Below the pieces are notes generated by a model. It was not told where the DNA came from. It did not search any database and saw only the letters and a program-made list of their open reading frames with translations. Below are positions 14,030 through 37,087 of a stretch of DNA of 64,000 nt, piece by piece. Both the position numbers and the translations under genes were made by a program. The stretch comes from Leucoraja erinacea (Eukaryota), in the NCBI RefSeq assembly GCF_028641065.1, contig NC_073387.1, positions 31,496,001 to 31,560,000 of the forward strand, written 5' to 3'. The stretch's first letter is position 1; each line of letters opens with the position of its first letter.

Positions 14030-14692
14030 GTACATGAGCATCATTAGGGTCAAGTCCATAGTTCCCTGAATGTAGTGACGGAAGTAGGTAGAGTGCTAAA
14101 GAAAGTGTGTGAAATGCTTGGCTTCAAAGTTTGGGGCATTGAGTATGAGATTCAGAAATTCATACTGCAGTTTTAGAAATCTGCCTTTACTGCATTCAGA
14201 GTATTGTGTGCAGTTCTGGCTGCCCCATTTCAGGAAGAATGTAGAGGAATTGTAGAGGGTGCAGAAAAGGTTTATCATGATGCTGTCTAGATTAGCGAGT
14301 ATTAGCTATGTGGGGTGTTTGGAGAAACTCACTGAAGTTGGAGAAACGTAGATTGTATTCTCTGGAGCATTGGGGGCTGACCTAATCAAAGTTAATAAAA
14401 TAATGAGAGCATGGATAGAGTAGACTGTCAGAATCTTTTTCCCAGAAAAGATTAGCAGGAATAGCTTTAAGGTGATAGGAGGTACATTTAATGAAGATGT
14501 GGTGGGCAAGTTTTGTACACTGAATGGTAGATGCTGGAACATGCTGCCAAGGCTGGTGATGGCAGCAGATACAACAATGGCATATAAGAGGCATTTAGAC
14601 AGGTGCATGGATATGCTGGCAATGAAGCGGTATGGATCCTGTGCAGGAAGAGGAAATTAGCTTAATTTAGCATTATGTTTGGCAGAGACATT
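14030..14692 (+). mobile_element. Degenerate CR1 3' region
   Basis: GAGTATTGTGTGCAGTTCTGG (EYCVQFW), WNMLPRLVM and KRHLDRCMD remnants. Confidence 0.75.
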
Positions 14693-15737
14693 GTGCTTCA
14701 TTTTGAGACCCATGCACTACATTGGTGACCCCGACGCTCCATTAGCGTTATGATGGAGAGAACAGAAAGCCCTACCTCCTCACAGGCTGGCCCGGCCCTG
14801 TCTCTGGACGCGGTCTCCGTAAAACTGCCCAACATCTGGACCAGAAGGTTGCGTGTTCGAATCACGTCGGGGTCACCACGGCTTGTGGTCGGTGTAGGCG
14901 GTAAACGGGCGGCCCTCCAGGAAGTAGCGAAAATGGCGCACTGCCAGGTACAGAGCGAGGAGCTCACGATCGAACGCGCTGTATTTTGTCTGCGCACGGT
15001 TGAGGTGCCGGCTGAAGAAGGCCAGGGGCCGCCAACCTCCATCCGTCAGTTGCTCCAGCACAGCACCAACCGCCGACTCCGAGGCGTCCACCGTGAGAGC
15101 AATCGGGGCATCTTCCCACGGCTTACCACCCGCAAGCTAACGGTCTGGTGGAGAGATTCCACAGGCAGCTGAAGGCAGCACTGAAGGCACGACTCTCCAG
15201 CCCGGTCTGGATGAACGAGTTGCCGTGGGTCATGCTGGGCATCCGGACTACTCCCAAAGAGGACTTGGCCTCATCATCGGTGGAGCTCGTTTACGGGTCG
15301 CCACTCACGGTGCCCGGGGAGTTCGTGCCGTCGGCGCAGGGGCAGCAGGGAACACCCTCATCCATCCTAAAGCGCCTTCGCGAGCAAGTTGGCAGGCTCG
15401 CACTCGTCCCGACGTCCCGCCATGGGACATTTCGCCCACACGTGCCATCAGCCCTCAGGGTCGTGCGCCCGCCGGTGTGTTTCATGCCACTGGTTCTGGG
15501 GGGGGGGGGGGGGGGGGGTCCTCTGGCGGCTCCCAAGGGTCGTGCCATCATAGTGTCGAACCCCTCGTCACAGGAGTGGTTCAGTCCGGAGGCGGCCCTT
15601 AGCCGGAGGCTTTAAAGGCAGGGGTTTGGGTGCCATCTTCCTCTTGTTTGGTCTTCCCTACAACCGGGAGGAACATAATAAAAGGTGCCTCTCAAAACAC
15701 TGGACGTCGTGCTTCATTTTGAGACCCACGCACTACA
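14693..15737 (+). mobile_element. Rearranged, deleted Gypsy LTR element (CsRn1-like, tRNA-Trp PBS)
   Basis: LTR end 14693-14721 repeated at 15709-15737; PBS TGGTGACCCCGACG 14723-14736; gag start AVSVKLPNIW; inverted RNase H (DASESAVGAVLEQ...TDHKP, about 14879-15115); integrase TAYHPQANGLVERFHRQLK; G-run PPT 15498-15518; 3' LTR about 15522-15737 with AATAAA. Confidence 0.9.
14842..14878 (+). pseudogene. DNA copy of the tRNA-Trp 3' half (positions 40-76, including CCA)
   Basis: CAGAAGGTTGCGTGTTCGAATCACGTCGGGGTCACCA matches the vertebrate tRNA-Trp 3' half as recalled; its 3' end is complementary to the PBS at 14723. Confidence 0.9.
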
Positions 15738-16114
15738 TCACTGTAGTTCTGAGCAGCATCTACACATGTCTGTGTGCATCATTTCAGTTCTTGTTTACTG
15801 TAGATTGCCAACTGAGTTGGATCTCAGCTATGTGCTCTCTCCTTTATTCAATGACAGAAAGCAAGTTAATGCAAGAGAAATATTAAGCCTAAAAATGAAA
15901 TGATTAAGTGAAAACCACAGATATTTTTTTTTCTTCCTTCTAATCAAGTTCCTGTTCCAGCAGAACTGACATCAAGAAGTTGTAGTGATGGGAATATTTG
16001 GGAAAATTGTTTGACTGTTGTTGAAAATATAAAGAACTTGATATTGGCTCAAATTCCCATTAAATGCTTCCCGATTATTGTTTCCATCAAAGTCAGTTCT
16101 GCTGCAAGGCTTTT

Positions 16115-16380
16115 TTAGTCTAGTTTAGAGACACAGAGTGGAAACTGGCCCAGTGGCCCACTGAGTCCGTGCCGACCAAAGATCACCCGCACACTAGTTC
16201 TAGTCATACACTCTCGGGACAATTTACAGAAGCCAATTAACCCACAAACCTGCACGTCTTTGCCATGTGGGAGGGAACCGGAGCATCCAGTAAAACTGTT
16301 GTCACAGGCAGCACCCGTAGTCAGGATCAAACCTGGGTCTCTTGCACTGTAAATCAGCAACTCTACTGTTGCACCACTGG
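16115..16380 (-). mobile_element. tRNA-derived SINE (HE1-like)
   Basis: Reverse-complement homologue of 5663-5960, with (TTTAG)-like tail. Confidence 0.8.
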
Positions 16381-17819
16381 GCTAAAATGTTAACACTGTT
16401 TTCTTTCCACAGTTTTTATCTGACCTGCTGAGTAATTCCAGTACTTTTTGATTTTATTACAGATGACCAGCATCAGCAGTTTTTTGTGGCGAGTTTAATG
16501 GGCAGCTGAACATACAATGTAGTCAATATTAGGAAGAATGACTCTCATCAAAATCTCATGGCTTTGTGGTGTAAAACTTTAGAAAATTCTCAGACTGGCC
16601 TTGAGGAAGACTTCAATTATAATTACCAACTGTGACAACATTCAAAGAGTTTAATTACCCTGCATTATAAATCAAATCTTTTCCCCTCACATGTAAAAGG
16701 AGAAAATCAGAGTGAGCGAGGTAACATGATATACATATATTAGTTAATATTAGTACGCACCGAGTGGCAAGGACCCCACTTGCCCAGTCTTATTGTCAAG
16801 GAATATCCTGCTAATGCTATGGGGAAGAAAGTAAAACAAAGGAACAAGTCTAAAAGCCAACACCCTTTTCTGTGGTTTTAAGGTTATTTCATTGGATGCT
16901 GGCCAATGCATCCATCACAGTCTTCTTTGTTTCTCTATTAGGTGACATAATAACAAGGTGCGGCAAAAGTTCCGTATTCCAGAACCAAATTTGAAATCTA
17001 ATGGTTCCTGGGAACAGGGAAGAAAATGGAAAAAATTAAACTAAAATTACAGATTGTTTTCAGCCCCATGCAGGTTTTAAAAATAGGGAGGTATTTGTCC
17101 TCAGACTGGCAGTGACAAATGAATGAACCAGGAGCTGAAAATGAAGGAACTGCAGGAGTTGGAGCTGAAATAAAAAACAGAAAATCCCAGAAACACTCAA
17201 TGCATAATGCAGCATCTGTGGAAAGGGAAAAGGGTCAGAAGGTTGCTCAAAGCGAAACAGAAAATTTTTTTTTCACACAGAGACTACCTGAGCTACTGAA
17301 TGGTTCCTGCATTTCCTGCTTTTATTTCATGCCAGAGTAATCTCTGTGTGCTGTACTCCAGTCAGTCTAAAGAAGAGACGTAACCCAAAACATTATCTGT
17401 CCATGTTCTCCAGTGATTCTGCCTGACCTGCTGAGTTACTCCAGTTCTGTCTCTTTTTCTCTGCACTTTTAATGGTTGGTTTTAATCAACCCAAAATTTG
17501 GAAGTGCGGTTTAATCAAAATAATGTTATTACACTATATCACATATTTAACATTAATGGTCCTTGGGCAATTTAAGTGTGAAATTTCTGGTAGAACTGTG
17601 AAATCTGTGTGTTTTGATGGGAAATTAGGACTGCATGCACCCCTTTTTGGTTGCTGTGAATGGAAATTGTGTCATGTTGGATGAATTATAAAGACATTTT
17701 GTGTACACATTTATTTCCCCAGATGATATACATCACAACCTCCAGGGTTGTACAGTGATGATGAATACAATTCCTGCCATTGAAGAGGGACAAACTCCAG
17801 CCAATGCCCTTACATACAA

Positions 17820-18325
17820 CATTCAGCACAGGAACAGGTGCTTCGGCCTGTAATGCCCATGCCGAAAATTAAATTAATCTCCTCTACTTGTATATGATCC
17901 ATATCACTCCAATCCTTGCATATCCAAATGCCTATCTAAAAATCTCTTAAATGCCACTGTCATATTTGCTTCCATCACCAACTCTGGCAGCGTGATACAG
18001 GCACCCACCACATCTGTGTAAAAACAATTGACCTCAGCAAACTCTTTAAGCATTGTCCCTCTCACCTCAAAGTTATGCCTTTGAGTCTTTGATATCTACA
18101 CCCTTGGAAAAGGGTTCTGACTCTCAAGAAGGGTCTTAAAGGGTCTGAAGATGGGTCTCGACCCGAAACGTCACCCATTCCTTCTATTCCAGAGATGCTG
18201 CCTGTCCCGCTGAGCATTTTGTGTCTCTGTTCTGACTCAATCCTATCTATGCTCCTCATAATTTTATACACTTCTATTTGGTATCCCCTCAAACTCCAAT
18301 GCTCCAGAGAAAACAATTCTCTCCT
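17820..18325 (-). mobile_element. Degenerate CR1 3' fragment
   Basis: FSLEHWSLRGYQIEVYKIMRSIDR (18062..18316). Confidence 0.75.
18124..18228 (+). mobile_element. Penelope-terminus mini-insert with minimal hammerhead core, 10-bp TSD
   Basis: GGGT-CTGAAGA-T-GGGTCTCGACCC-GAAAC-GTC-ACCC at 18141-18176; TSD GTTCTGACTC at 18114-18123 and 18229-18238. Confidence 0.75.
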
Positions 18326-18503
18326 TGCAGCTAATACCTCTATTCACAGGTATAACATGCAAACTCCACACAGACAGCACCTGAGATCAGTACTGAAACC
18401 AAGTCTCTGATACTGTACCACCACAATGTAAGGCCTTTTTGCCATTCCGTAACGTAAACCCAGAAGCTGTGCAAAAACCTACTGGAAATCTTGCTTATGC
18501 AAT

Positions 18504-18604
18504 ATGTAGGAAGGAACTACAGATGCTGGTTTAAACCAAAGAAAGGTACAAAAAGTTGGAGTAACTCAGTGGGTTTGACAGCATTTCTGGAGAAAAGGAA
18601 TGAG
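18504..18604 (-). mobile_element. Penelope-terminus mini-insert (hammerhead part absent)
   Basis: GGAACTACAGATGCTGG...GGAGTAACTCAG; flanked by TGCTTATGCAAT (18492) and TGCTTATGTAAT (18605). Confidence 0.6.
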
Positions 18605-20419
18605 TGCTTATGTAATTTATGTGAAGCAATAATAAATTGCTTGATTTAATAATATTAATCCTTTAAATGAATAGAATTATCCGCATTTTTGTGTGAATGG
18701 CAACAAATGAATATTCTGTATTATATGTTCACACATATTCTGAATGAAGTATATTTGAATTAAAAAATGAATCGGTAGCATCATGGGGAGTAACAACATT
18801 TTAATTCCTTTTTTTTCTGCTCCTAGAAGGCTGATTGGATTTGTTTCATTCTCAAGCCACAGTATGAATGCAAATGATGTTGATGTTGATTTGAAAGATT
18901 GGTGGTAAGCCTTACTGGAAGTGAACTGAATTAACCTTTTCAGGGACACAGATCAGAAAACCAGGATGTCTCAGTATCTGCATGGTGTGGCAATTCAACT
19001 TCCTCAGCTTGAGTTTAGCAACCCTTACATTGGCACAGTACTGAATGGAAGCTGTATTTCAAAGCAAATTCTAATGACAAGAATAAAACACAGCAATAAT
19101 GTAACTCACAGGATCTCAATAGGTCTTCCTATTAAAAGCAACCAACATTATTCATTCAGATGTTAGCATACATGGATGAAAGAAACGTTTTCCAAAATGA
19201 TCAGTGTTAAAAATAGCTTATATTATCAAAGTGGTTTCTTAACTGGAGCATAAAGTACAAACTTTGGAGTTTTGAGTGGCCTTAAAAAGAACAGAAAAGC
19301 TGCTGCAAACAACAACTATTTATCCAAGTTAAAATAAAGCTTCCAAAATGCCTTTAGCATTTGATGGCTTCCTTACTGTTTGGATCCTTTTGGAGTGAGG
19401 AGTCCCCAGCGGAGCTAATTGACTGCTTTTATAAGAAGCTACAGAAATGATCCCTATCTTTACTCCTGTCATGTGTGACTGTGGAGAGCAGACAGACCCA
19501 TTCATTGTTTTCACTTACAAATGAATCAATAAAAACGCACCACTGGGTGTCACTGAAGTGGCTAAATGCAGCCTCTGAGTTTGGAGCTGGTTAATAATAC
19601 AAACTTTGAAGTGAAAATTCTCCTAATGAGTGGACTTGCTGTGGGAAGCGATTAAGTGTCACAAACAAACAAAGCAATTTGATGGAACCTTTGCACTGTT
19701 TCACAGGATGCAATTGTTGATAGACTCCTCAATAGTGACCGGAGTGAATCCTGAGGCCAATTCCTGCCGAGAAGGACAGCACCCTACAGAGTATGGGAAT
19801 ATGACCCATCCTCTATTACTTATCCTAAGTTTAAAATCACTTACATGACCTGATAATCTGTTGATACAGTAAGGCCACATTTATACTTCACTTTGCAAAC
19901 TGAAGTACTTTCCACTCCAGGCAAACCAATGTAACAAAGTCATAAAGTGACTCGCACAGGGAGTTTCCTGTATTCCAAATGATTTCCTGTATCCATCAAT
20001 TTGTTTGGTCCGTGATTGTTTTCAGATTCTGGTTTGTGTCCTGCTGTGTTTTGTGGGGTGTTGCAATAAGCATGATGACATTTTAGGGAAGTTCAAAGAA
20101 TAATGAGGAACTCCATTTAAGCTTCTGTGGTTGCACTTTATAACAAATTATGAAAATTGTTAACACAATTTGCACAGGCATAATACAAACTTAATTTCCA
20201 AAATGGGGTGCTATTCAAGCAGGCAATGCATTTTTTTGTAGTCGAATGAAAGCCCTGAAAGGACCAAAAGGCACCCAGTGGAGGTCAGTAAGGGAGATCA
20301 CCAAGACACTTTATCCACAAACCACCCGTTCATTTCACGCCCTCTTACCAAAGACCAGCAAGCAGAGAGATCATGCTGATTTGCAAGAACTATGGGTTTT
20401 CCCCATGGTCTTGAGTACC

Positions 20420-21240
20420 ATATAGAATCATAGAGTTACACAGCATGGAAATAGGCCCTTTAGCCCAACTTGTCTCTGCCGACCAAGGAATCTACCTGAC
20501 CTAATCCCATTTTCCTAATTTTGTCCCTTATCACTCTACCTTTTCTATTCCAGATGTATTTTTAACATTATAATTGTGCTAGCCTCTCGAGTTTCCTCTG
20601 GTAGCTCATTACATGTACCCACCATCCTATCTGCGAACATGTTGGGCCTCAGGACCCTATTCAATTTTACCCCTCTCATTTTAAACCCACACTCTCTATA
20701 GTTTTAGATTCTCTTAGTCAGCAAAACAAACATTATCCATGCCTCTTTTGATTTGATATACTTTTATAAAGTCACCCCTCAGCCTCCTGTGTTCGAGGGA
20801 AAAAAATAATCAGCATATCCAGCCTCTTCTTATAATTCTAGCCCTCCTAATCCAAATGCATTTTAGCTTAATGGCATCCTTCCTATATCTGAGCAACTAG
20901 AATGGAATCCAAAACTCCAAGTGTGGTCTCAGCAATGAGTTGTATAGTTGTAACATGACGCCTCAACTCCTGTATTTAATGCCCTGGATGATCAATGCAG
21001 GAGTGCCAAATGCCTTCTTCACCTCCTTGACTACCTGTGTTTCCACTTTCAAGGAAATATATCTCTGTTACTTGAGATCTCGCTGTTCTACAACACTCTG
21101 ACAAGACTCTAACATTCTCTGTGTAAGACCTGCCCTGATTTAATTTAGCAAAATGCAACATTTTTTCACGTAGAAATTCCATGTGATATTCATTGACTAG
21201 TTGATCCAGAGCTCATTGTAATATACTGCATCAACAACAG
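20420..21240 (-). mobile_element. Degenerate CR1 3' region
   Basis: Tail AGAATCATAGAG and GGCCCTTTAGCCC; CTCCAAGTGTGGTCT (reverse of RPHLE). Confidence 0.7.
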
Positions 21241-21699
21241 ATTGCAAGCACCATACAACCAATAGAAGTGTTGCATCAGATATGAATTGTGTTCTGTCAA
21301 TGAGCATCTGGTGTGTGATGATCATTGGAAATTCTTGTGGGACAACAATCAAAGATACAACATTTTTGTAGATACAGTTTGTTGTGTCAGCTGCATCTGT
21401 GCTACTATGCTACTCACTGTGCTACACGGAAATAATCGACTAACCTAGTGAGCCCAATCTTCCAAATCTTTCCATGAAAAACATGCCCAAGTGCAGGTCC
21501 AAATACTTCAACACAATCCTTCACTAACAATTCCACAGATTAGATTCCTTTTTATTGAACAGTCTAGCAAAAATAAATGCCAACAAAAAGTAAATATTTC
21601 ATGTCAAAATTATAAATGAATTCATACCATGTTCTTGTGTGACTCCTTAATATCTGACTTTTTGCTGTGTATTTTGTTGTCTTAACATTTACCACCAGG

Positions 21700-22466
21700 G
21701 GTCCGAATGATTGGCAGCCCTGCCAACAGTCTGTCTGTTTTTTTTGTCTTTTTTTAAATTTTTAGCATGTTTTTTAAAAGTTTGTGTAAATGTTCTCCGG
21801 TTTGTTTTTATGTGGGGGAGGGGGAGGGGGTCGGGAGAAACTTTCTTTTGAGTTTCTTACCTTGCTGGAGATACGATTACTTTCTGGATTGTGTTTTCGG
21901 TCGCTCTGCGGCCTTACCATCGATGGAGCTGGAGGCCTCCTCGAACTGACCTTGAGCGCCCCCGCGGGGCGTGGACATAACATCGGAGTCATTCCCTTGC
22001 CTGGGATCACTCCGACCGCAGCCTGCGGACTTACCATCAAGCTCGCATTCTCGGGTTAGGCCTAGTCGGTAGCTCCAACTAGCCCCTACGCGGAGTTCGA
22101 TTGCCTGACCAGCCCTGATGTGGGGTTCGATCACCTGACGCGGGGGAGCTGACATCCCCCCCCGATGCAGGAGCTGATCGCCCCGATGTGGAGGGAATGC
22201 CGCCGGCTACGGGAGTCAAGATCGTCCTGTCAATGGAGGGCTCGAGGCCCCCGACCGCTGGAGAGCAAACATGGGAAGAGATATAACTTTCTTTTAACCT
22301 TCATCACAATGAGGAATGTGGAGGAGTCACTGTGGTGGATGTTTATGTTAAAATATATTTTATGTGTTCTGTTGCTTTTTATTTGTACGTCTGACTTGGC
22401 AATTGAAATTTCACATATTGCAAAACATATTTCGCTAATAAAGTATTATTGTGATTGTGATTGTGA
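21700..22466 (+). repeat. Unclassified GC-rich retroposon 3' region
   Basis: Ends AATAAAGTATTA(TTGTGA)n; homologous to 10352-10838. Confidence 0.6.
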
Positions 22467-22529
22467 CTGATTGTGATTAATGTTCCTCTACAATCATACT
22501 TAACTTCTTGGGTGCAAGGAGCTTCAATC

Positions 22530-22943
22530 CAGATCATCTACAAAATCCTGGTCCTCACCTGCAAAGCCCTCAACCACTTGGCCCCCCCTTATCTCACTGA
22601 CCTCCTCTCCCCCTACCAACCCTCACGGTCCCTCAGATCCGTTTCAGCCGGTCTCCTCTCCATTCTGAAATCCAACCTCTGCACTTTTGGAGACAGAGCC
22701 TTCTCCAGGGCAGCTCCCAGGCTCTGGAACTCCCTCCCACAATTGATCCGAACTTCTGAGTCCCTCACCATCTTCCAGTCCCGCCTCAAGTCCCATCTCT
22801 TCACCTCTGCATACCCTTAGTCCCATGTCCCCCTCCCCTTTGCATCTCTGTCTTACTGCTCTATTTTGTTTTGTTCTTGACTCACCATGTAAAGCGACTT
22901 TGAGTCCTTGAAATATACAAATAAAATGTATTATTATTATTAT
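22530..22943 (+). mobile_element. L2 LINE 3' end
   Basis: YKILVLTCKALNHLAPPYLTDLL...RSLRS...GDRAFSRAAPRLWNSLP; tail GTAAAGCGACTTTGAG...AATAAAATG(TAT)n. Confidence 0.9.
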
Positions 22944-22989
22944 AAGGATGATTTGCTTCCATTCCATGTCTTTGGATTCTGAGCTCACA

Positions 22990-25520
22990 GCTGAGGCAAA
23001 TGCTGAACCTGCAGACGTCACAAAATGAGGCAGGAATTTCTAGATGGGAACTATATACCTGCATATAGGTACACATACATGGGCGGATATGTAGTGGGGA
23101 TGTGTGCTCCATTGCACTCTCAACACTGGGTCCTGTGTGCTCTAAATGCATGCCATTGAGGTTTGGGGAGATGAGCGTCAGATCTGCAAAAGATGTGGCC
23201 TGCCTATTGAGACTGGTTGGATGTTGCATGATGCATTTAGAGCTTCAGTACTGGAGAAATTGGCCCAGGGGAGAGCACCAATACCATATTCTCCCAATGA
23301 ATTTGGAGGAGCTTGTTAAGAAAATATCAATGATAGCTCTCTGGTCCTTTGACGTGCCTGCTGTAGGTAGTCTATATTTCACAATCAGACAGGAGGCTGG
23401 GGGTCTTTCCGGCATGATATACTTTGAGATGTGTTTAGTTTAGTTTAGAGATAAAGAGAGATAAAGCGGAAACAGCCCTTTTGGCCTACTGAGCCTGCGC
23501 CAACCAGTGATCCTCGCATATTAACACCATCCTACACACATTATGGACAATTTACTTGTTTTTAACCACCAGGCCAATTAACCTACAAACCTGTACATCT
23601 TTGGCGTGTGGGAGGAAACCGAAGATCTCGGAGAAAACCCATATGGTCATGGGGAGAACATACAAACTACGTACAGACAGCGCCCATAGTCGGGATTGAA
23701 CTCGGGTCTCTGATGCTGAAAGTGCTGTAAAGCAGCAACTCTACTGCAATGACACCGTGCCGCCGTGTGAGGTTTAAGATCTTAAAAAGGGGTATGAAAG
23801 CGGATGGCAAATTTTATCATCACTGTCTTTCTTCGCTGAGAGGTGGCCCTTGAGTTATGGGGAGTTTTCTAGGATCTTATCATGGATTTTTATTGTCAAA
23901 TGGTGGCTATATACTGTGGGTTTAGATTGGTAGGAAAACCTCTGAGTTGTGAATGTTAGGTGGAAGAGTCATTTTGTCATATGCTTCAAAGAAGGAGTTG
24001 ACATTGATTTGGAGCTTGGTACAAGCATTATCTGCAGCTTGCAGGTCAATGACTGAATTTGGGTGACTGGTTCTGAAGTCAAGGCATCATAGCTTGAATA
24101 GTTTCCCATTTGACCTATAGATTAGCTGTGGCTCCAGTGGAAAGCATGATGGAGTGTTCAGGCATTGAAGCAGCCTTGCTTTACACCATTCGGCAATGGA
24201 ACTGAGTCCATTGACAGTGTCTGCAGGATGGTTGGAATTGAAAGGTGTCAAAGACTGCAGGATTATCTAGATAGACTAATTCAAGTGGATCTGGACTTGA
24301 AACTGCCTGCTACATGGGCACGCCTAGTGTTGACAGCAGTGATGCAGGCTGACTGGTTGACAGACAGCAATGAAAGCACTGCCAAAGAGATTAGCGGAAG
24401 GAGGAACCTTGTCTTCCCGAGATTACAGCAAGATCCTACTTTGTGTAGCCACTGCAGCTCCCTTGGGGTTGTACTGCAACAATCTTTGTAATTTGTTCAT
24501 GGGTAGATTGCCAGACTCATCAGGGAAGCCCCTCTGTACATTTTAATACTCAGCCATGTGAAGGCAATGGTGTGACGTTCTCCTGCTATGTATGCATTGC
24601 TGCTGTCTGTGTTGCAATGGAATCTGCAATAACTGCCATAACATGTGGCAAGGTGTTGGGTCAAGTTGTATCATTTAGGTTCGGTTCACCTTCCATGTTG
24701 GCTCTAGATTCTGTACTGGTATTGGTTTGTTATTGTCACTTGCACCGAGATGTGGTGACAAACTTTATTTTGCTCTCTATCCAGGCAAATCATACCATAC
24801 ATGAGTGCATCAGGAAGTACAAAAGAAAATAAATAAATAAAGTGCAGAATGAGAAAGAGCAGACACAAGAAAAGTTTAAGGGCAGAAAAGAAGTAGAATG
24901 GAAGATTGTGCATTCATTTGAGTGTCTGTTAACAGTGGGGAAGATACTATTCTTGGTATGTATTTTCAAGCTTTTGTAGCTTCAGCCCAATGGGAGAGGG
25001 AAGAAGAGAGAATGACCGGGGTATGAGTGGTCCTTTGCTACTTTCCCAAGGAAGCTTGAAATATATTCGGAGTCGATGGGGGGAGGCTGATTTGCTTGAT
25101 GGACTGGGCTATATTCACAACACTGTAATTTCTCGCAGTCTTGGGCAGAGCAGTTGCCATATCAATCTGTGATGCAATTGGATAGGATGCTTTCTATGGT
25201 GCATCTGTAGAAATATGTTGGAAACATTCTAACTTTCCATAGCCATCTGAGGAAGTTGAGGCATTGGTCGATGACCAGCTCCCTCTGTCAAAGCACCTTG
25301 CCAAGCTGGTGGTAGATTCTTCCATGATTCTTCACAGCCAACCAAAAGAATTCAGCATCAATTTCACTGTTTTATTTATTATGAATTCCGAGCAGCTCTC
25401 TTCAAAATCGTCATCTGCATCCAGTTTCCCAGAACTCATGCACAAACTCATCCTCTGCTTTGTAATTGGTGGAGAGACAGTTGTGCTATTAAGAATGGCA
25501 TCATACTGAGAGAGGACAGC
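22990..25520 (-). mobile_element. Old RTE-like LINE remnant with nested SINE and LINE tail; boundaries approximate
   Basis: Minus-strand GVKQGC at about 24165-24188 and ADNAC (YADD-like) at about 24020-24035. Confidence 0.5.
23434..23766 (-). mobile_element. tRNA-derived SINE (HE1-like), full length
   Basis: (TTTAG)n tail at 23434-23449; reverse complement of the head CACGGCGGCACGGTG...GTAGAGTTGCTG. Confidence 0.85.
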
Positions 25521-26704
25521 AGGTTTTATGCTAGGTTAATATACAAAAACTTCAATGCTTTGGTGAGCTGCTGCTACCAACCCGAGATGCTGAGCAGGGT
25601 CTGTGGTCTAACTGTATGAAACAGGAAAATCTGTGATCTCAGGTGACTTTTAATTGATTTCTAACCAGAAACTTCAAGCACAATGTGTCCTTTAGTGTGA
25701 GGCAACAGATGTAAACTCTTTTGTCTATTAAATATTTTTGGCATAAAATCTAAAAGCAGAAAAAAAAAGAATATACCACCTTCAAAATGTGCTCCACCAA
25801 ACCCACATGGCTCCCATCAAACAACGATAATATTATAAATGTTGCATTACTTTGAGATAGATTTCAATTTAGCCCCAGGCATGCAACTACTGATGTGGAG
25901 CGACTGCCTGCTATAGAAACTGCCTGAAACAATGAAATCAATGGAAGTTAAGATTGGGCGGTTTCTGTAATGGGCAAGCGGTTGAAAATCTATCCTTTTA
26001 TCTCTTTATATTTGCTTATGTCTCATTTACACTCTGATTTAATGCCTTAGAGCAGCTCAATGTATGGCTGATGCTGCAAATTGAATGGAACTTTGCTGTT
26101 CTTCTTTGGAAAAACTCCAGTCATAATTACTTTATTTTCATGCATGTGTAATAGATCTAACCAGAGGTGGGTCCGATTAAAACCAGTACCAATTCGTCAC
26201 AAGTAATTTGATTGTGAAATGGTGATCAGGTTTCATTCATGTGGGCCTGCACAATTTATATGGACATGCTCAAAACTGTGAATGTGTTAAGTTCTAGGAC
26301 TTGGGTTCACATCCAGTCTAGACTGCTGGAGTGAAGACATCTTTTTATATTTTTTGCTTAATTTCATCCAGCTTGAGGAGAAGTTCATATACTATTGTTT
26401 TTTAATTCAGAGCAAAGAACTGGTCTGCCTGTATTTGCTGGTCGATACTTTAACATCACCCTTCTGGAGAATATGTGTTGAATCACCTCTTTCATATTTG
26501 TTTTTTTTCATGTTGACTTTTTTTGTCTAAATTATAAAATTAAAATTGTTCATATTTTTGTGTGTGCACTGTGGCTGAATATGAAATGGAACTGATTTAT
26601 CCATAAATGTCGAGGCTATTATTACAGTGGGTTGATTTTTAGGATATTTCTGTAAGGAATTTTAACATTTACCCATAATATGACAGTATTGTCCCATAAT
26701 ACAA

Positions 26705-29700
26705 TAATAGACAATAGACAATAGGTGCAGCAGTAGGCCATTCGGCCCTTCGAGCCAGCACCGCCAGTCAATGATGGCTGATCATCCCTAATCAGTAACC
26801 CGTTCCTGCCTTCTCCCCATATCCCCATATCCGTTATTTTTAAGAGCCCTATCTAGCTTTCTCTTGAAAGTATCCAGAGAATCGGCCTCCGCTGCCCTCA
26901 TAGGCAGAAAATTCCACAGACTCACAACTCTCTGTGTGAAATAGTGTTTCCTCATCTCCGTTCTAAATGGCTTAAAATGTGGCCCCCGGCTCTGGACTCC
27001 CCCAACATCGGGGACATGTTTCCTGCCTCTAGCGTGTCCAAACCCTTAACAATCTTATATGTTTCAATAAAAACTCCTCTCATCCGTCTAAATTTCAGAG
27101 TGTACAAGCACAGCCGCTCCATTCTCTCAGCATATGACAGTCCCACCATCCCGGGAATTAACCTTGTAAACCTACTCTGCACTCCCTCAATAGCAAAAAT
27201 GTCCTTCCTCATATTAGGGGACCAAAACTGCAAACAATACTCCAGGTGTGGTCTCGCTAGGGCCCTGTACAACTGCAGAAGGACCTCTTTCCTCCTATAT
27301 TCAACTCCTCTTGTTATGAAGGCCAACATGCAATTCACTTTCGTCACTGTCTGCTCTACCTGCACGCTTACTTCATTGATTGATGAACAAGGACCCCAAG
27401 ATCCCGTTGTACCTCCCCTTTTCCTAACTTGACCCCATTTAGATAATATCTTCCTTCCTGTTTTTGCTACCAAAGTGGATAACCTCACATTTATCCACAT
27501 TAAACTGCATCTGCCATGCATCTGCCAACCTGTCCAAGTCACCCTGCATTCTCATAGCATCTTCCTCACACTGCCACCCAGCTTTATGTCATCTGTGAAT
27601 TTACTCACGTTACTTTGAATCCCTTCATCTAAATCATTGACGTATATTGTTAATAGCTGCTGTCCCAGCACCGAGCCTTGTTGTACCTCACCAGTCATTG
27701 CCTGCCATTCTGAAAGGGACCCGTTAATCCCTACTCTTATTTTCCTGTCTGCTAACCAATTTTCCATCTATGTCAGCACTCTACCCCCAATACCATGTGC
27801 CCTAATTTTGCCCACTAATCTCCTATGTGGGACCTTATCAAATGCTTTCTGAAAGTCCAGGCACATTACATCCACTGACTCTCCCTTGTCCATTTTCCTA
27901 GTTACATCCTCAAAAAATTCCAGAAGATTAGTCAAGCATGATTTCCCCTTCGTAAATCCATGCTGACTTGGGCCGATCCTGTTACTGCTATCCAAATGTG
28001 CCGCCATTTCATCTTATATAATTGACTCCAACATCTTCCCCACCACCGATGTCAGGCTAACTGGTTGATAATTCCCTGTTTTCTCTCTCCAGCCTTTCTT
28101 AAAAAGTGCGATAACATTAGCTACCCTCCAATCCACAGCAACTGATCCTGAATCTATAGAACATTTGAAAATGATCACCAATGCATCCATGATTTCTCGA
28201 GCCACTTCCTTAAGTACCCTGGGATGCAGACCATCAGGCCCTGGGAATTTATCAGCCTTCAGTCCATCAGTCCACCAACACCATTTCCTGCCCAATGTGG
28301 ATTACCTTCAGTTCCTCCGTCACCCCAGATCCTCTGGCCACTAGTACATCAGGAAGATTGTTTGCGTCTTCCTGAGTGAAGACGGATCCAAAGTACTTGT
28401 TCAACTCATCTGCCATTTCCTTGTACCCCATAATAAATTCACCTTTTTCAGTCATTAAGGTTCCAACTTTGGTCTTAACTAAATTTTTCCTCTTCACATT
28501 TCTAAAGAAGCTTTTACTATCCTCCTTTACATTCTTGGCTAGCTTACCTTCGTAACGCATCTTTTCTCCCCATATTGCCTTTTCAGTTATCTTCTGTTGC
28601 TCTTTAAACATTGCCCAATTCTCTTGCTTACCGCTCATCTTTGCTACATTGTACATCTTCTCTTTTATTTTTAGACTGTCTCTAACATCCCTTGTCAGCC
28701 AAAGCCGCTCCTTACTCCCCTTGGAATCTTTCTTCTTCTTTGGAATGAACTGACCCTGCTCCTTCTGTATTATTCCCAGAAATACATGCCATTGTTGTTC
28801 CACTGTCATTCCTGCTAGGGTGCCTTTCCAATCAACTTTGGCGAGCTCCACCCTCATGGCTCCATAATCCCCTTTGTTCAACTGTGACACAGACACCTCC
28901 GATGTATCCTTCTCCCTCTCAAATTGCAGATTAAAACTTTCCATATTATGGAATCGTTTTCCATATTCCTAATGGCTCCTTAACATCGTTCCCTTATCAA
29001 ATCCGGTTCATTACACAACAATAAATCCAGAATTGCCTTCTCCCTGGTAGACTCCAATTGCTTTCTCCCCGGTAGGCTCTAAGAATCTATCACGGAGGCA
29101 CTCTACAAACTCCCTTTCTTGGGGTCCAGTACCAACCTGATTTTCCCAGTCTACCTGCATGTTGAAATTTCCCATAACAAGCATAGCATTACCTTTACGA
29201 CATGCCAATTTTAATTCCTAATATAACTTGCACCCTATATCCAGGCTACTGTTTGGGGGTTTGTAGATATGTCCCATTAGGGTCTTTCTACCCTTACAGC
29301 TCCCTAGTTCCATCCATACTGACTCCATATCTCCTGTTTCAATGTCACACCTTGCAAGGGACTGAATTTCGTTCCTCACCAACAGAGCTACCCCACCCCC
29401 TCTGCCCACCTGTCTGTCTTTTCGATAGGAGGTATAGCCTTGTATATTCAGTTACCCGCAGCTGGCCTGCTTGCAGCTATGTCTCTGTAATTCCCACAAC
29501 ATCATACTTGCCAATTTCGAACTGAGCCTCAAGCTCGTCCACTTTATTTCTTATACTTTACGCATTCATATACAACACTTTGTCTTCAGTATTCACCTCC
29601 CCTCTCACACTGCTCGCAATTGGCCCTGACCTTACTCTCATCTCTTCTCGAACTACCTTCCCATTAATTCAGGAGTCTTTTGTAACTTTTCCTGTACTCA

Positions 29701-29780
29701 CTTCCCCTTTAACTCCATCTTTATACTCCCAATTTGTCAATCCCTCCCCCCCACTATTTAGTTGAAACCCACATGTGTAG
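26705..29780 (-). mobile_element. CR1 LINE ORF2 (endonuclease plus RT) with 3' tail, frameshifted
   Basis: GRGGGVALLV, VMGNFN, PGPDGLHPRVLKE, QHGFTKGKSCLTNL, KFTDDIK, RPHLEYCLQFWSP; tail (CAATAGA)n at 26705. Confidence 0.95.
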
Positions 29781-30540
29781 GCCATTCTTGAAGTTGGCAA
29801 CAGAATATAAGGACAACCTCTTGCACTATCATGGACTTGTTTTCTAATTTTGTATCTTTGCACTTTTATTTGTTTACATAGTCTTTCTTCACTGTCTTGT
29901 AGAATTGTGTGTGGAATGTATGCTTTTGTGTGTTCTCTTGGTCTGCATGTGAGTGATTTTCATTGCCACTCTTGGAAATATGCTGCAAAATTGCCAACTA
30001 ATTGTGGAACTCAAACTGTGCAAACAGATAATAGACAAAAAATATATAGCTAATTCCATGAGAATTAAAATTTCAAATTTTAGTCTATGTGTCTCAGTGT
30101 CATGCAATATAATTTGAGAGTGAGTCAGGTCCGCATTGAGAAGCTGAGAAAGTAAGATTTTTGGTCAATAATAGGTCTGAATACAATGGGTTCAGGCATG
30201 AATTTGGAGTTGAGGCCAAGTATAGATCAACCGTTCACATGGTGAATAGTAGACTAAGGTTGATGGGCCTTGTGAACTGCTTCAGCTCCTACTTCTTGAT
30301 GTTCTTGTGAATTATGTGATGATTTCAAGTATTGATGTTGGTGATCTTCTCATGCCTTGTTAGATAGTGGGAATTCTAGTTTTGTTTTTGTCTTATTGAA
30401 GAACCTTTTGCAAAATGCTCAATTACACATTATACAGTAGATATTACACACTACAGTCTGGGTGCACTGTTGATCGAACAAAGTGGTCAAGTGGTCTGCA
30501 TTATCCTGGATCATGTCCGGGATATGGATTATCCTGGATC

Positions 30541-33500
30541 CTGTTGCTCAGAAGGGTAAGGAAAAGAAGAGGAGGGCAATTGTAATAGGGGACTCTATTG
30601 TCAGGGGGTCGGATAGGCGATTCTGTGGACGCAGACAGGAGACCCAGATGGTAATTTGCCTCCCTGGCAACAGGGTCAGGGATGTGTCGGAACGTGTCCA
30701 AGAAATCCTGAAATTGGTACATATAGGGACCAACGACATAGGTAAAAAAAGAGAAGAGGTCCTGAAAGAAGAATTTAGGGAGTTAGATAGAGAGTTAAGG
30801 AGAAGGACTGCAAAGGTAACAATCTCAGGATTACTGCCTGTGCCACGCGACAGTGAGAGTAGGAATGGAGCGAGGTGGAGAATAAATGCGTGGATGAGGG
30901 ACTGGTGCAGTGGGTATGGATTCAAGTTTCTGGATCATTGGGACCTCTTTTGGGGAAGGTGCGACCTGTACAGAAAGGACGGGTTGCACTTGAACTCGAG
31001 GGGGACCAATATCCTGGTGGGGAGATTTGCAAAGGCTACTGGGGAGACTTTAAACTAGTATGGTTGGGGGGAGGGACTCAAATTAAGAAAGCTAGCAGTC
31101 AGTGTGTGAGGCAGGAGGCAGAGAATGGTAGCACTCTGACCCAACATGTAGGGGAGAGAGAAAAAAAAGACAATAAACAGAGAATAAGAGAGGGTGGGTT
31201 TCTTAAATGTGTATATTTTAATGCTAGGAGCATTGTAAGAAAGGTGGATGAACTTAGAGCCTGGATTGACACCTGGAAGTATGATGTTGTGAAACATGGT
31301 TGCAGGAGGGCTGTGATTGAAAACTAAATATTCCAGGATTTCGTTGCTTCAGGTGTGATAGAATTGGAGGGGCAAGAGGTGGAGGTGTTGCATTGCTTAT
31401 CAGGGAAGATATTACAGCAGTGCTTTGGCAGGATAGATTAGAGGACTCACCTAGGGAGGCTATTTGGGTGGAACTGAGAAATGGGAAAGGGGTAGCAACA
31501 CATAGGGGTGTATTATAGACTGCCAAATGGGGAGCGAGAATTGGAAGAGCAAATATGTAAGGAGATTGCAGATATTAGTAGTAAGCACAAATTAGTGATT
31601 GTGGGAGATTTCAATTTTCCACACATAGACTGGGAAACACATTCTGTAAATGGGCTGGATGGGTTGGAGTTTGTAAAATGTGTGCAGGATAGTTTTTTGC
31701 AACAATACATAGAAGTACATACTAGAGAAGGGGCGGTGCTGGACCTCCTGTTAGGAAATGAGACGGGTCAGGTGGCAGAGGTATGCGTTGGGGAACAGTT
31801 CGGGACCAGTGATCACAATACCATTAGTTTCAATATAATTATGGAGAGGGTCGGAACTGGACCTAGGGTTGAGATTTTTGATTGGAGAAAGGCTAACTTC
31901 GAAGAGATGCGAAAGGATTTAAAAGGAGTAAATTGGGACAGTTTGTTTTATGGGAAAGATGTGGAAGAGAAATGGAGGACATTTAAAGGTGACATTTTAA
32001 GAGTACAGAATCTTTATGTCCCTGTTCGGTTGAAAGGAAATAGTAAAAATTGGAAAGAGCCATGGTTTTCAAGGGAAATTGGACACTTGGTTCGGAAAAA
32101 GAGAGAGATCTACAATAATTATAGGCAGCATGGAGTAAATGAGGTGCTTGAGGAGTATAAAGAATGTAAAAAGAATCTTAAGAAATAAATTAGAAAAGCT
32201 AAAAGAAGATATGAGGTTGCTTTGGCAAGTAAGGTGAAAGTAAATCCAAAGGGTTTCTACAGCTATATTAATAGCAAAAGGATAACGAGGGATAAAATTG
32301 GTCCATTAGAGAGTCAGAGTGGACAGCTATCTGCAGAGCCAAACGAGATGGGGGAGATATTGAACAATTTATTTTCTTCGGTATTCACCAAGGAGAAGGA
32401 TATTGAGTTATGTGAGGTAAGGGAAACAAGTAGAGTAACTATGGAAACTTTGAGATTCAAAGAAGAGGAAGTACTGACACTTTTAAGAAATATAAAAGTG
32501 GATAAGTCTCCAGGTCCGGACATGATATTCCCTAGGACATTGCAGGAAGTTATTGTAGAAATAGCACGGGCTATGACAGAAATATTTCAAATGTCATTAG
32601 AAACGGGAATAGTGCCGGAGGATTGGCGTACTGCGCATGTTGTTCCATTGTTTAAAAAGGGGTCCAAGAGTAAACCTAGCAATTATAGACCTGTTAGTTT
32701 GACGTCAGTGGTGGGCAAATTAATGGAAAGGATACTTAGAGACAATATATATAAGCATCTGGATAAACAGGGTTTGATTAGGAACAGTCAACATGGATTT
32801 GTGCCTGGAAGGTCATGTTTGACTAATCTTCTTGATTTTTTTGAAGAGGTTACTCGGGAAATTGATGAGGGTAAAGCAGTGGATGTTGTTTATATGGACT
32901 TCAGTAAGGCCTTTGACAAGGTTCCTCACGGAAGGTTGGTTAAGAAGGTTCAATTGTTGGGTATTAATGGTGGAGTAGCAAGATGGATTCAACAGTGGCT
33001 GAATGGGAGATGCCAGAGAGTAATGGTGGATGGTTGTTTGTCAGGTTGGAGGCCAGAGACTAGTGGGGTGCCACAGGGATCTGTGTTGGATCCACTGTTG
33101 TTTGTCATGTACATCAATGATCTGGATGATGGTGTGGTAAATTGGATTAGTAAGTATGCAGATGATACTAAGATAGGTGGGGTTGTGGATAATGAAGTAG
33201 ATTTTCAAAGCCTACAGAGAGATGTATGCCAGTTGGAAGAGTGGGCTGAAAGATGGCAGATGGAGTTTAATGCTGATAAGTGTGAGGTGCTACATCTTGG
33301 CAGGACAAATCAAAATAGGATGTACATGGTAAATGGTAGGGAATTGAAGAATGCAGGTGAACAGAGGGATCGGGGAATAACTGTGCACAGTTCCCTGAAA
33401 GTGGAATCTCATCTAGATAGGGTGGTAAAGAAAGCTTTTGGTGTGCTGGTCTTTATAAATCAAAGAATTAAGTATAGAAGTTGGGATGTAATGTTAAAAT

Positions 33501-34073
33501 TTTACAAGGCATCGGTGAGGCCGATTCTGGTGTATGGTGTACAATTTTGGTTGCCTAATTATAGGAAGGATGTCAACAAAATAGAGAGAGTACAGAGGAG
33601 ATTTACTAGAATGTTGCCTGGGTTTCAGCAACTAAGTTACAGAGAAAGGTTGAACAAGTTAGGTCTTTATTCTTTAGAGCGCAGAAGGTTAAGGGGGGAC
33701 TTGATAGAGGTATTTAAAATGATGAGAGGGATAGACAGTTGACGTGGATAAGCTTTTCCCACTGAGAGTAGGGAAGATTCAAACAAGGGGACATGACTTA
33801 AGAATTAAGGGACAGAAGTTTAGGGGTAACATGAGGGGGAACTTCTTTACTCAGAGAGTGGTGGCTGTGTGGAATGAGCTTCCAGTGAAGGTGGTGGAGG
33901 CAGGTTCATTTTTATAATTTAAAAATAAATTGGATAGTTATATGGACGGGAAAGGAATGGAGGGTTATGGTCTGAGCGCAGGTATTTGGGACTAGGGGAG
34001 AATACATGTTCGGCACGGACTAGAAGGGTCGAGAGGGCCTGTTTCCATGCTGTAATTGTTATATGGTTATATG
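30541..34073 (+). mobile_element. Young near-full-length CR1 LINE: esterase ORF1 3' part plus ORF2 with few disablements
   Basis: IGDSIVRG/HIGTND/DGLH esterase (30483..31058); endonuclease YFNARSI, VGDFN, SDH; 506-aa RT ORF 32222..33742 with YADD; tail TTATATGGTTATATG. Confidence 0.97.
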
Positions 34074-35173
34074 TCCAGCTGGTTGAATGCTATTAGACCT
34101 AAATTGATCTTGATGAATGGAGAAGATTTTATCACATCATTGACATGTGTCTTGTAAATACTCAGATTTTGTGGAGGCCATGTGGCTAATCACTTGTTCA
34201 GAGGACCATTGATCTGCTCTTTAGATTACAGTTTAATGCAAATCCTTCAGGTTTGTTTATGGTCAATACAATCCCCCAGGGAAATGTTCTGAGGTATTTA
34301 GTGAATATTGAATATAATTAGACTTTCTCTATTTGGAGAAAGCAATTTCTGCCTCTTGGGTGACAAAAAATTGTAATTTACTACTATTCAGCCTAAGCCA
34401 AAATATTGTCCTCATCTGGTTAGATGAAGGCATGGAATGTGTCCTTATTTCAGGGGAAACAAAAAAAAAGAATATTTTATAGCAGTGAACAGTGGGGTGC
34501 CCCAGTTATTTACAATATATATTAACGATTTAGATGAGGGAATTAATGCATCTGACTGCCTGCCTCTGCTCGCGCTTTGACAGGCATTACCCCGTTATGT
34601 CTTCTGTACTTCTTGGCTTCTTAACTCTCACTGCTTTTAATTTGTCATTTAGCGTTTTTAAACTGCTGCTCAGGAAGTGCTGCGCGCTCCGCTGGGCTCC
34701 TTGAAGTTCTAGAACATGGCGGCGGTGGCGGTCAATATCGCCATGCAGACGCGGGTGAGGGTGCCGGGAAGCACGATGGGAGGGTGACCATGGCGGCCAT
34801 TACTCCCTCTGGGAAAGGCCGTCTATGGAGACCTGTGATCCTTCCGTCGATCGCAGGGACACGGGGAATCGTGACGCCTTTTACTTGCTAGTGATCCTGA
34901 TCCCACCTGGCGATCTCTGGCCATCATGGGGAACGACCTCCTCTCCATCACCCCCTCCCAATCATCTGTCACGCGGGTGGGTGGGTAGGCTTCACCTTGC
35001 GGAAGCCATGATCGGCCGGCCCTCGCCGATTTTGACCATCCTCAGATTGCTCCAGGCCTCGCTCGGGTCCACGCCAGCCGCAACCTCGCCTGGTGCCTGG
35101 TGGGGAGGTTGCTGCTCACGACCTGGGTTGGCGCTGCCTCTACCCCCTCCCCCTCCTGTAGATTAGTGGCTCA

Positions 35174-37087
35174 TGTTATGTGTCCTGCTTTTGTAGTTAT
35201 GCCCAGTAGCTTATTAGCGTCGCGGTCTACTGCTCTCTGCAGTCTGAAGTGAACTTAAGTGAGAGCTTGTAGTTGTTTATTCTAAATAAACAGTGTATAA
35301 CCTGACATAGTGTGAGGTTTTTATTATTACAAGGACTCCAAACCAACATGGTGTTAGAAGTGGGATTTGAACCCATGCCTCCAGTTGGAGACCAGCTTCG
35401 ATTTCTCTAAAATCGCATCGACTAGCAACATGCTTCAGTGCACTGACATAGAGCTCAACCGGTTCGCCTTGTTTGTGACACATTGAGAAAAATTTATGTC
35501 GTTCAATGCTCACATTAATTTGTAACTAACATAGTTGTTGGAATTTACGTAGGAGGCACTCAGGATCACGGATGGGCTCTGCTGGAATTTGTTTGTTATT
35601 ATCATCCACACCAGCCGGTGCAGAGTGAAATCTTCTGGCAGCATCAGTGCTAAGTGAGGGAGAATCGAGGCATGAACAGCGGGTGCTGCATTCGGATAAG
35701 CAGCATCAGTGTAGAATCTTCCTCGAACACACGCCATCGCTCTGCAAGATCAGCATCAAACACCAAAATATCTGGCTTTTTGAGAGCAGCAAGATATCCT
35801 TACTCCATCGTAGTGGACGATATCCTCATTGCTGTGAAAATGATCGAGGAACACGGCGCCAATCTGACAAAAGAATTGAAGCATGCCGAGGCCATCCATC
35901 TCAAACTCAACTCCAAAAAATGCAAATTCAGAATGAATGAGGTAAAATACCTAGGCCATATATTTACCAAGGACGGCTTGAAAACTAATCCAGCGGAAAT
36001 CAGTGCCATTAATGAACTCTCAGCACTCACTGAGGTTCCTTGGCATGGCGAACTATCTGAGCAAATTCTTTCCTGATTTCAGTGAAATGTCAGCCCCATT
36101 ATGCCTTCTAACACACAAAGACACTACTTGGACCTGGCATGAACAACAACAGACATCATTTGACACTCTTAAATGGAAAATGTCGGCCACCCCTGCTCTA
36201 GCGTATTTTGATCATAGACTGCCTGTTACACTTACATGTGATGCCTCACAACATGGCCTGGGCACTGCATGCCTTCAGAATGATGGCCATGGCAATAAGC
36301 CTGTCACCTATGCCTCCCGCACCATGTCTGACACAGAACATGATACGCCCAAATCAAAAAGGAATTACTAGCGGTAATTTTTGCCTGCAAAAAGTTCAAC
36401 GATTTCATCTTTGGTTGCACAGTTACAGTTGAAACCGACCACCAACCTCTTATCAGCATTTTCACTAAACCTATTCATAACTCTCCAGTGCGCCTACAAC
36501 GGATGTTACTTCAAAAATGACATCGTCCTCACGTGCACCTCGGACGACCTGCGAGCGAGGATCTACCCTCGCAGGATGACGACTTTATCGTGATGTCCGT
36601 ATCCTTCATCCCTTCATCATGGATGGAGGGCTTAGTTGCCCACACTATCACTGCCAAGACCCTACGGTCCCTAACCTCTGTAATTAAGCGTGGCTGGCCA
36701 GCCAAGCACTACAACGTTCCTTTGCCAGTCTAACCTTTCTTCCCTGTTCGGGACAAATAAGTGCTACAAGACGGGATTGTTTTAAAAGGAACACAAGGCC
36801 GTGGTTCCTGCTTCGTTGCATCACTGGCATTTCGACACTGTCCATGCAGGACACCCAGGCACTGAATCCACTGTTTCACAGGCGAAAAGCATGTTTTACT
36901 GGCCTGGCATGGCCAAATACATCAACGACAATGTGGTAGCTTGTGCTGTGTGCAATAACATGGCACCTCATCAACAAAAGCAACCACTTCCGCCACATCC
37001 TGTACCTGCGCTCCCATGGTCTACAGTGGCAGCTGATTTATTTGAGTGGCACGGCAAGCAGAGCTCATGGATTCGTATTCAGGGTGG
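35174..37087 (+). mobile_element. Rearranged Gypsy (Mag-like) element: 5' LTR, extended tRNA-Leu PBS, inverted gag, partial pol; no 3' LTR
   Basis: TGTT...AACA LTR 35174-35348 with AATAAA; minus-strand gag KKPDILVFDADLAERW...ERHKFFS (about 35396-35793); plus-strand IVVDDIL, FLGMANYL, CDASQHGLG, HAGHPG...YWPGM...C..C. Confidence 0.88.
35349..35395 (-). pseudogene. DNA copy of the tRNA-Leu(CAA-type) 3' half including CCA (47 nt)
   Basis: Reverse complement CTGGTCTCCAACTGGAGGCATGGGTTCAAATCCCACTTCTAACACCA gives anticodon-stem 3' strand, long variable arm, T-arm, acceptor strand and CCA. Confidence 0.88.

Follow-up and report, generated by a model that had tools for sequence, protein, structure and literature searches.

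Dead Gypsy copies in the skate Leucoraja erinacea as a probable record of over-copied, methylated primer tRNAs

In HIV-1, plus-strand synthesis by reverse transcriptase (RT) normally ends before the 1-methyladenosine at tRNA position 58 (m1A58), and a minor product passes this base and ends at the modified position 37 (PMC13191261); the minor products P3-P5 have been described as unable to complete synthesis or to integrate (PMC8599865). In Ty1 and Ty3, the primer-binding site (PBS) is encoded by the element and not inherited from the tRNA, with the tRNA-bearing first plus strand being discarded, and copia and Ty5 prime with a half-tRNA generated by internal cleavage (PMC5371799). Here, we analyzed a 64,000-nucleotide (nt) stretch of the skate Leucoraja erinacea (NCBI RefSeq assembly GCF_028641065.1, contig NC_073387.1, positions 31,496,001 to 31,560,000 of the forward strand; hereafter, the window), in which two Gypsy retrotransposon copies with long terminal repeats (LTRs) carry over-long copies of the 3' end of a tRNA—tRNA-Trp at site 1 and tRNA-Leu(CAA) at site 2. 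Hundreds of such copies occur across the genome, and we consider it highly probable that they are dead elements in which RT over-copied the mature primer tRNA, erred or stalled at methylated bases and jumped to a wrong template before insertion.

A retroviral precedent reportedly exists: Pulsinelli and Temin (1991) are said to have observed faulty termination of plus-strand strong-stop DNA followed by ectopic transfer, which left a large deletion and cellular sequence in an integrated provirus. The original prediction, made from the sequence of the window, had proposed a rule for the two sites, namely that unrelated Gypsy families capture the tRNA from position 40 to the CCA end and then switch to antisense gag, with hypomodified tRNAs or 3' tRNA halves serving as primers.

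Over-long tRNA copies, their errors and their end points

Exact patterns of 26-27 nt, starting with the CCA complement and carrying either T or a non-T base opposite A58, retrieved 352 over-long tRNA copies from the 2.19-Gb genome: 312 of tRNA-Leu (174 with T and 138 with non-T) and 40 of tRNA-Trp (26 and 14, respectively). Reversed-pattern controls gave 0 matches, which excludes chance, and the two tRNA features of the window are real, as they match host tRNA genes extended by CCA. The results below refer, unless a different total is given, to an examined set of 180 copies comprising all 40 Trp copies and 140 of the 312 Leu copies (70 with T and 70 with non-T opposite A58, in contig order); site 1 belongs to this set as locus L055, and site 2 lies outside it. 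Among the 140 Leu copies, 134 have an LTR-type CA end 0-2 nt upstream of the tRNA copy, as do 38 of the 40 Trp copies. The upstream LTR sequences form at least 55 clusters for Leu and 17 for Trp, and a junction is shared by a single pair of copies (L141/L142), so the copies represent independent events. A single amplified aberrant master copy was rejected as their source on account of that one shared pair. The systematic pathway suspected from the two window sites is thus borne out, as is the notion that the copies are dead.

The copied tRNA measures between 18 and 59 nt. All copies start at the CCA end, a property for which the search patterns selected, and do not show internal-cleavage priming as in copia and Ty5. 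Genome-wide, 849 sites match CA plus an exact 18-nt Leu PBS, about a third of which extend into the tRNA. The census figure is a lower bound, because 10 of 40 sampled 18-nt Leu PBS sites that the longer patterns had missed (contig C1) also turned out to be longer copies with a mismatch, two of them only 23-25 nt long.

Copying errors are concentrated at particular bases. The base opposite A58 is wrong in 138 of 312 Leu copies (44%), against 5 of 317 at the neighbouring A59 (Fisher p = 1.6e-43), and in 14 of 40 Trp copies (35%); 70 Leu errors comprised 52 A, 11 G and 7 C, and C accounted for 10 of the 14 Trp errors. Within LTR clusters, the base opposite A58 is mixed. A similar signature is found at the variable-loop C of tRNA-Leu, which faces a wrong base in 60 of 82 copies, with three different bases represented, compared with 0 of 84 and 1 of 76 at the flanking bases; where both flanks are exact, the proportion is 39 of 53, and the site is not a CpG. 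Stops also accumulate just before this C (25 of 111 copies, against 4 of 115 and 2 of 86 beside it). We rejected CpG decay as an explanation for position 58 and the loop C; it accounts for part of the changes at 57 and 49. Two loci (L271 and L278) display two consecutive wrong bases, opposite 58 and 57.

The host genes are uniform at these bases: A58 is present in 9 of 9 Trp genes, and of the Leu-CAA genes whose acceptor stem matches, 12 of 12 have both A58 and the loop C; two additional Leu-CAA genes carry another acceptor stem. Genes for Leu(CAA), Leu(CAG) and Trp are clustered at C12:6.29-6.33 Mb, C34:18.46-18.53 Mb and C39:1.65-2.45 Mb, and the Leu-CAA genes contain 30-35-nt introns. The template was mature, spliced tRNA, as the CCA is absent from the genes and L300 crosses positions 38/37 without the intron. 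This one informative copy passes G37 with a wrong base and continues for 9 nt; L071 possibly passes G37 too, with only 3 matching bases beyond.

In human Leu tRNAs, m1A58 and 1-methylguanosine at position 37 (m1G37) have been mapped in all isodecoders and 3-methylcytidine (m3C) at position 47d in Leu-CAG (PMC5066629), and zebrafish carries variable-loop m3C in Leu-CAG and Ser (PMC11417395); the error spectrum at m1A varies with sequence context (PMC8062790). The errors and stops at three fixed positions likely mark the methylated bases m1A58, m3C and m1G37. Five skate copies of tRNA-Leu(CAG) (L075, L134, L147, L230 and L242) carry A in place of G across from the loop C. Given the published m3C47d at that very site, the Leu(CAG) copies are a positive control for the loop signal of Leu-CAA, and from this signal we predict m3C on the variable loop of tRNA-Leu(CAA). 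With wrong bases exactly opposite A58 this frequent, hypomodified tRNA, as originally envisaged, was not the main template.

The end points of copying were evaluated as stop hazards, i.e., the probability that a copy which reaches a given position also ends there, after 10 Leu-CAG copies and 2 duplicates had been dropped (Leu, n = 129; Trp, n = 39). For Leu, the hazard is 5/32 at position 40, 7/27 at 39, 13/20 at 38 and 5/7 at 37, with two copies going further; for Trp, the corresponding values are 3/19, 4/16, 6/12 and 2/6, and four copies extend past 37, to 34, 30, 29 and 29. The hazard at 40 is therefore 0.16 in both families, with its peak at 38 and no sharp run-off at 40; 9 of 180 copies end at 40 (2 followed by antisense sequence, 4 by sense sequence and 3 without a coding flank). 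Eighteen of 20 Leu copies that reach 38 end there or at 37, some ends at 37 being one-base chance matches. The stop wall stands in front of G37 and not U39. The proposed clustering of stops near the anticodon loop is accordingly supported and its placement at position 40 is not; 3' tRNA halves starting at 40 are likewise not indicated, as copies continue to 38 and some to 28-30.

Joints, insertion and competing explanations

The sequence that follows the tRNA copy is most often sense coding sequence of the element. In a tblastn comparison with Gypsy proteins (queries taken from the two window families), 84 copies had a sense and 11 an antisense coding flank no more than 120 nt from the tRNA end, and 85 had none, a class that takes in untranslated and divergent sequence as well as host sequence. 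Antisense gag follows in 2 of 180 copies, one being site 1, so the supposed switch to antisense gag does not describe the population. Inversions are more frequent after an early stop: of 30 copies ending at 18-21 nt (L267-L306 sample of contig C1), 11 run into antisense gag or pol, 10 have a sense flank and 9 no match (Fisher p = 1e-4 versus long Leu copies), with 6 sharing a downstream leader. As inversion is commoner after these short stops, it is not tied to read-through and belongs to failed transfer in general. In these families, a copy with a perfect 18-nt PBS is often aberrant.

More complex arrangements were also noted. In L073, L177 and L226 (around positions 1500-2000 of the loci), a module of LTR plus tRNA copy apparently lies in reverse orientation within pol and has antisense pol on either side—possibly through autointegration or because strong-stop DNA was captured by its own element. 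Locus L083 (1463-1535) holds two tandem tRNA copies with different bases opposite A58; L127 and L161/L162 return to the LTR end and then carry a second tRNA copy, and the group, to which L225 also belongs, includes two tRNA copies 340 nt apart.

Ordinary members of the site 2 family have only 8-10 nt complementary to the tRNA (11 of 11 loci), and the ordinary PBS of the Trp family of site 1 has 14 nt (one ordinary locus and the window); L298 and L301 show an apparently tRNA-derived 18-nt PBS followed by a normal leader. A close donor is present among the loci for 47 of 180 copies, in which microhomology at the joints averages 1.6 nt, compared with 0.3 nt in shifted controls, and reaches at least 2 nt in 16 of 47 (p = 0.001, stricter two-sided null) and at least 4 nt in 7 of 47 (p = 8e-6, two-sided null). 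Antisense joints have longer microhomology (mean 4.8 nt, n = 6) than sense joints (1.25 nt, n = 32; p = 5e-4). A full second LTR was found in 28 of 180 loci (flanks of 1.5-2 kb), and because 12 of them combine two LTRs with an exact 4-6-bp target-site duplication (TSD), integrase probably inserted at least some copies.

We propose that, with a short and element-coded PBS of 8-14 nt, the tRNA-bearing plus-strand strong-stop DNA would normally be a dead end, as in Ty1 and Ty3. Having copied the mature tRNA, as the CCA and the missing intron indicate, RT would have bypassed A58 with about 40% errors (presumably at m1A58), stalled at or misread the variable-loop C of tRNA-Leu (probably m3C) and mostly ended before G37 (probably m1G37). 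The stalled end could then have been rescued by a jump with 0-8 nt of microhomology, usually to sense internal sequence, which would produce a deletion, and less often to the opposite strand, which would produce an inversion with longer microhomology. Some of the products would have been inserted by integrase; others may be break captures.

This last option resembles an explanation that keeps the over-copied tRNA but has host double-strand-break repair (microhomology-mediated or non-homologous end joining) stitch the cDNA fragments in place of template switching by RT, which we regard as possible, though on balance doubtful. It would agree with the 33 of 40 Trp copies without a coding flank, with the truncated 5' LTR, several joints and missing TSD of site 1, and with the 2-8 nt of microhomology at antisense joints. 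However, 78 of 140 Leu copies run directly into element coding sequence, and because this continuation and the 12 loci with an LTR pair and an exact TSD point there, the joints appear to have been made inside the particle before integrase acted; the tandem tRNA copies of L083 and the LTR-end returns of L127 and L161/L162 further suggest repeated polymerase jumps. Far less credible, having failed the test set for it beforehand, is the scenario in which hypomodified tRNAs or 3' halves from position 40 prime the element and force the antisense-gag switch, perhaps as a host restriction. Both window copies end at 40 and enter antisense gag, the base at 58 is correct in roughly 60% of copies, and the wall at 38 could in part reflect run-off from an anticodon-cleaved half; yet the few ends at 40 lead to antisense, sense and flankless continuations alike, antisense gag is rare, errors at 58 and the loop C require modified templates, copies extend to 28-30, and inversions are commoner after 18-nt stops. 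We give even less credence to a mutational origin, in which undetected variants of tRNA genes or later mutations would account for the variant bases, and recombination with tRNA genes or pseudogenes for the fragments: isodecoders do vary at 57 and V5 and the assembly may miss some genes, but the CCA is present and the intron absent, 21 of 21 relevant genes found are invariant at the error bases, three different wrong bases occur per site with only 5 of 317 changes at the adjacent base, and stop pile-ups coincide with error sites.

Several observations weigh against over-copying of methylated tRNA by RT as the full account. Loop m3C has been reported for Leu-CAG and Ser, not for Leu-CAA, in human and zebrafish (PMC5066629, PMC11417395). 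The base at 58 is correct in 56% of the Leu copies and 65% of the Trp copies, including both window copies, neither of which has a misincorporation at A58 or the variable-loop C, and since most copies are correct at 58, some primers may be unmodified. All four Trp copies that extend past 37 read that position correctly, and we take tRNA-Trp to carry m1G37. A second Leu stop bump at V1-V2 (13/63 and 9/72; 22 of 129 copies) is free of misincorporation; lying on the 5' side of the variable-arm stem, it could reflect a modification near 44 or structure. A G run makes up one of the 12 TSDs, 152 of 180 copies lack a full second LTR within 1.5-2 kb, 85 of 180 lack a coding flank within 120 nt, and neither window copy has an LTR pair or a TSD. 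Finally, exact-match patterns favour young copies, and the survey covers two tRNAs in one genome.

The two copies in the window

The copies are Ty3/Gypsy elements, with an LTR of the form TG...CA, a PBS, gag, and pol in the order RT-RNase H-integrase; the gag label rests at both on position and nucleotide match to ordinary copies, with no Pfam hit. At site 1, window positions 14842-14878 (+) correspond to tRNA-Trp positions 40-76 including CCA and match the host genes L103/L104/L107, in which this CCA is not encoded. Read on the tRNA-complement strand, RNase H precedes the tRNA copy (Pfam PF17917, E = 1.5e-25), and antisense gag, PBS and U5 come after it. On the + strand, the order is a 35-nt LTR end, the 14-nt PBS, the gag start, tRNA-Trp 40-76, inverted RNase H, integrase and a 216-nt 3' LTR:

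14687..14721, + strand: U5 end (last ~35 nt) of a 5'-truncated Gypsy LTR, equivalent to LTR positions 182-216 of ordinary copies L243/L245
14723..14736, + strand: native PBS encoded by the element, pairing with tRNA-Trp over 14 nt and identical to the 14-nt PBS of ordinary copy L017/L243
14737..14843, + strand: 5' leader and gag start, 91% identical to L243, the final 2 nt in common with the tRNA copy
14842..14878, + strand: tRNA-Trp(CCA) 40-76 including CCA, in tRNA sense, as in host genes (locus L055, copied length 37, end at 40)
14879..15121, - strand: RNase H fragment in inverted orientation, directly abutting the 3' end of the tRNA (Pfam PF17917/PF17919; 94-98% to 19 other copies)
15116..15460, + strand: integrase fragment in sense orientation, overlapping the inverted block by 6 nt (weak Pfam rve_3, E = 0.003; nucleotide match)
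15458..15737, + strand: remnant of the 3' untranslated region and 216-nt 3' LTR (15522-15737) with CA end; right junction present in X1 and X3 contigs

The truncated LTR end is 91% identical to the 3' LTR, its left boundary being ambiguous by a few nt, and is preceded on the left by a tail that we take to be like that of a long interspersed nuclear element (LINE). Contigs of four runs, from two organisms, support the outer joints, and those of runs X1 and X3 span both of them; among the contig pieces listed, none bridges the inner tRNA joints. The tRNA 3' end adjoins RNase H and not U5, so it lacks the LTR end of strong-stop DNA, and the joint has no microhomology. No other copy among the 180 has its tRNA 3' end joined to coding sequence. 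Site 1 is a rare product of multiple jumps, one that links the 3' end of the tRNA to RNase H sequence. Either the primer could have been extended from a broken RNA end, or the plus strand could have jumped onto the tRNA end, a route whose feasibility the tandem copy of L083 suggests. Mispriming at a cryptic PBS was rejected, as in ordinary copies the sequence beyond the RNase H joint is not complementary to the tRNA end. The cut in the 5' LTR (14687) lies ~25 nt past an AATAAA, near the expected R/U5 border, which may be chance.

Site 2 has the layout of strong-stop DNA, in that the complement of the tRNA's 3' end, with its CCA, directly follows the LTR end:

35157..35348, + strand: complete 192-nt LTR (TG...CA) belonging to another Gypsy family, primed by tRNA-Leu, with no second copy within the window
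35349..35395, + strand: complement of tRNA-Leu(CAA) from 76 to 40, 47 nt, at the PBS position, as judged from host genes and 11 ordinary loci
35396..35791, - strand: inverted gag fragment, 81-87% identical to ordinary copies, with 2 nt of microhomology to the tRNA copy
35793..37089, + strand: sense pol fragment with RT, RNase H and the start of integrase (Pfam RVT_1, E = 3e-8), interrupted by stops and frameshifts and truncated at its right end

This site is an ordinary member of the genome-wide population with an antisense jump; its history would comprise read-through to about position 40, an antisense jump into gag and a second jump back to sense pol. The common architecture ascribed to the two sites holds in so far as both carry a tRNA copy to 40 followed by antisense gag; it fails in that the copy occupies the PBS position at site 2 and an inverted block at site 1. 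Similarly, the end point of the Trp copy is ambiguous, as had been noted, and so is that of the Leu copy, since both tRNA-gag joints share 2 nt with gag.

ARAGORN detected no tRNA gene in the window or in 26 Trp loci, and an Rfam scan returned nothing relevant. The probability of two copies in a given 64-kb window is 5e-5, with about 2 such windows expected genome-wide at 352 copies per 2.19 Gb; we set aside a local hot spot, which is not needed to account for the pair. The window further contains long repeats of 85-97% identity with long open reading frames (up to 517 aa) at 8573-9528, 26830-28429, 31496-33742 and 42519-44120, probably LINEs, and inverted repeat clusters at 12681-13542 and 59943-61488.

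Significance and comparison with known systems

On the whole, we lean towards viewing this genome as a fossil form of tRNA-modification sequencing, in which hundreds of Gypsy insertions would log the methylation of their primers, including a loop m3C on Leu(CAA); over-read DNA would be a routine source of deleted and inverted elements, and assemblies alone would suffice to map and date the modification sites. Such a record would be evidence from the germline in vivo that tRNA modifications act as stops in LTR reverse transcription, a role documented so far mostly for HIV-1 in vitro. It would also mean that over-read strong-stop DNA can reach chromosomes and explains a sizeable class of deleted Gypsy copies, and that modification sites—m3C on Leu-CAA being an example—are predictable from genome sequence alone. 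For annotation, searches for a PBS would pick aberrant copies wherever the native PBS of a family is short. In the open PMC and bioRxiv literature, covered mostly as titles and the beginnings of abstracts and without older primary papers, no paper turned up that describes a record of tRNA modifications in genomic LTR copies. The parts are known, namely over-read strong-stop DNA, dead-end Ty products, RT signatures of methylation and, reportedly, deletions by faulty transfer; the genome-wide fossil form was not found in the literature covered.

The faulty transfers attributed to Pulsinelli and Temin (1991) reportedly concern a few selected laboratory retroviral clones with no modification map, whereas the skate copies form a natural population of hundreds. 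As in the minor strong-stop products of HIV-1, copying passes position 58 and ends near 37; in contrast to those products, which were described in vitro or in cells, the skate copies number hundreds in the germline, some with LTR pairs and TSDs, and additionally show misincorporation at 58 and a stop in the variable loop. Ordinary skate copies resemble Ty1 and Ty3 in keeping an element-coded PBS that differs from the tRNA. However, Ty3 copies 12 nt of the tRNA, and the aberrant skate copies contain 18 to 59 nt and were probably rescued by ectopic jumps. With copia and Ty5 they share a tRNA boundary near the anticodon, but they use the 3' CCA end, and their end point is a polymerase stop. A likeness in signal exists to modification mapping by DM-tRNA-seq, mim-tRNAseq and tRAM-seq, where stops and mismatches occur at m1A58, variable-loop m3C and m1G37 (PMC5066629, PMC8062790, PMC11417395), and where, as seen with mim-tRNAseq, the m1A spectrum depends on context—in the skate, mostly A for Leu and mostly C for Trp. 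What sets the skate copies apart from these methods is that the enzyme was the element's own RT, acting in past germ cells, and that the loop signature falls on Leu-CAA.

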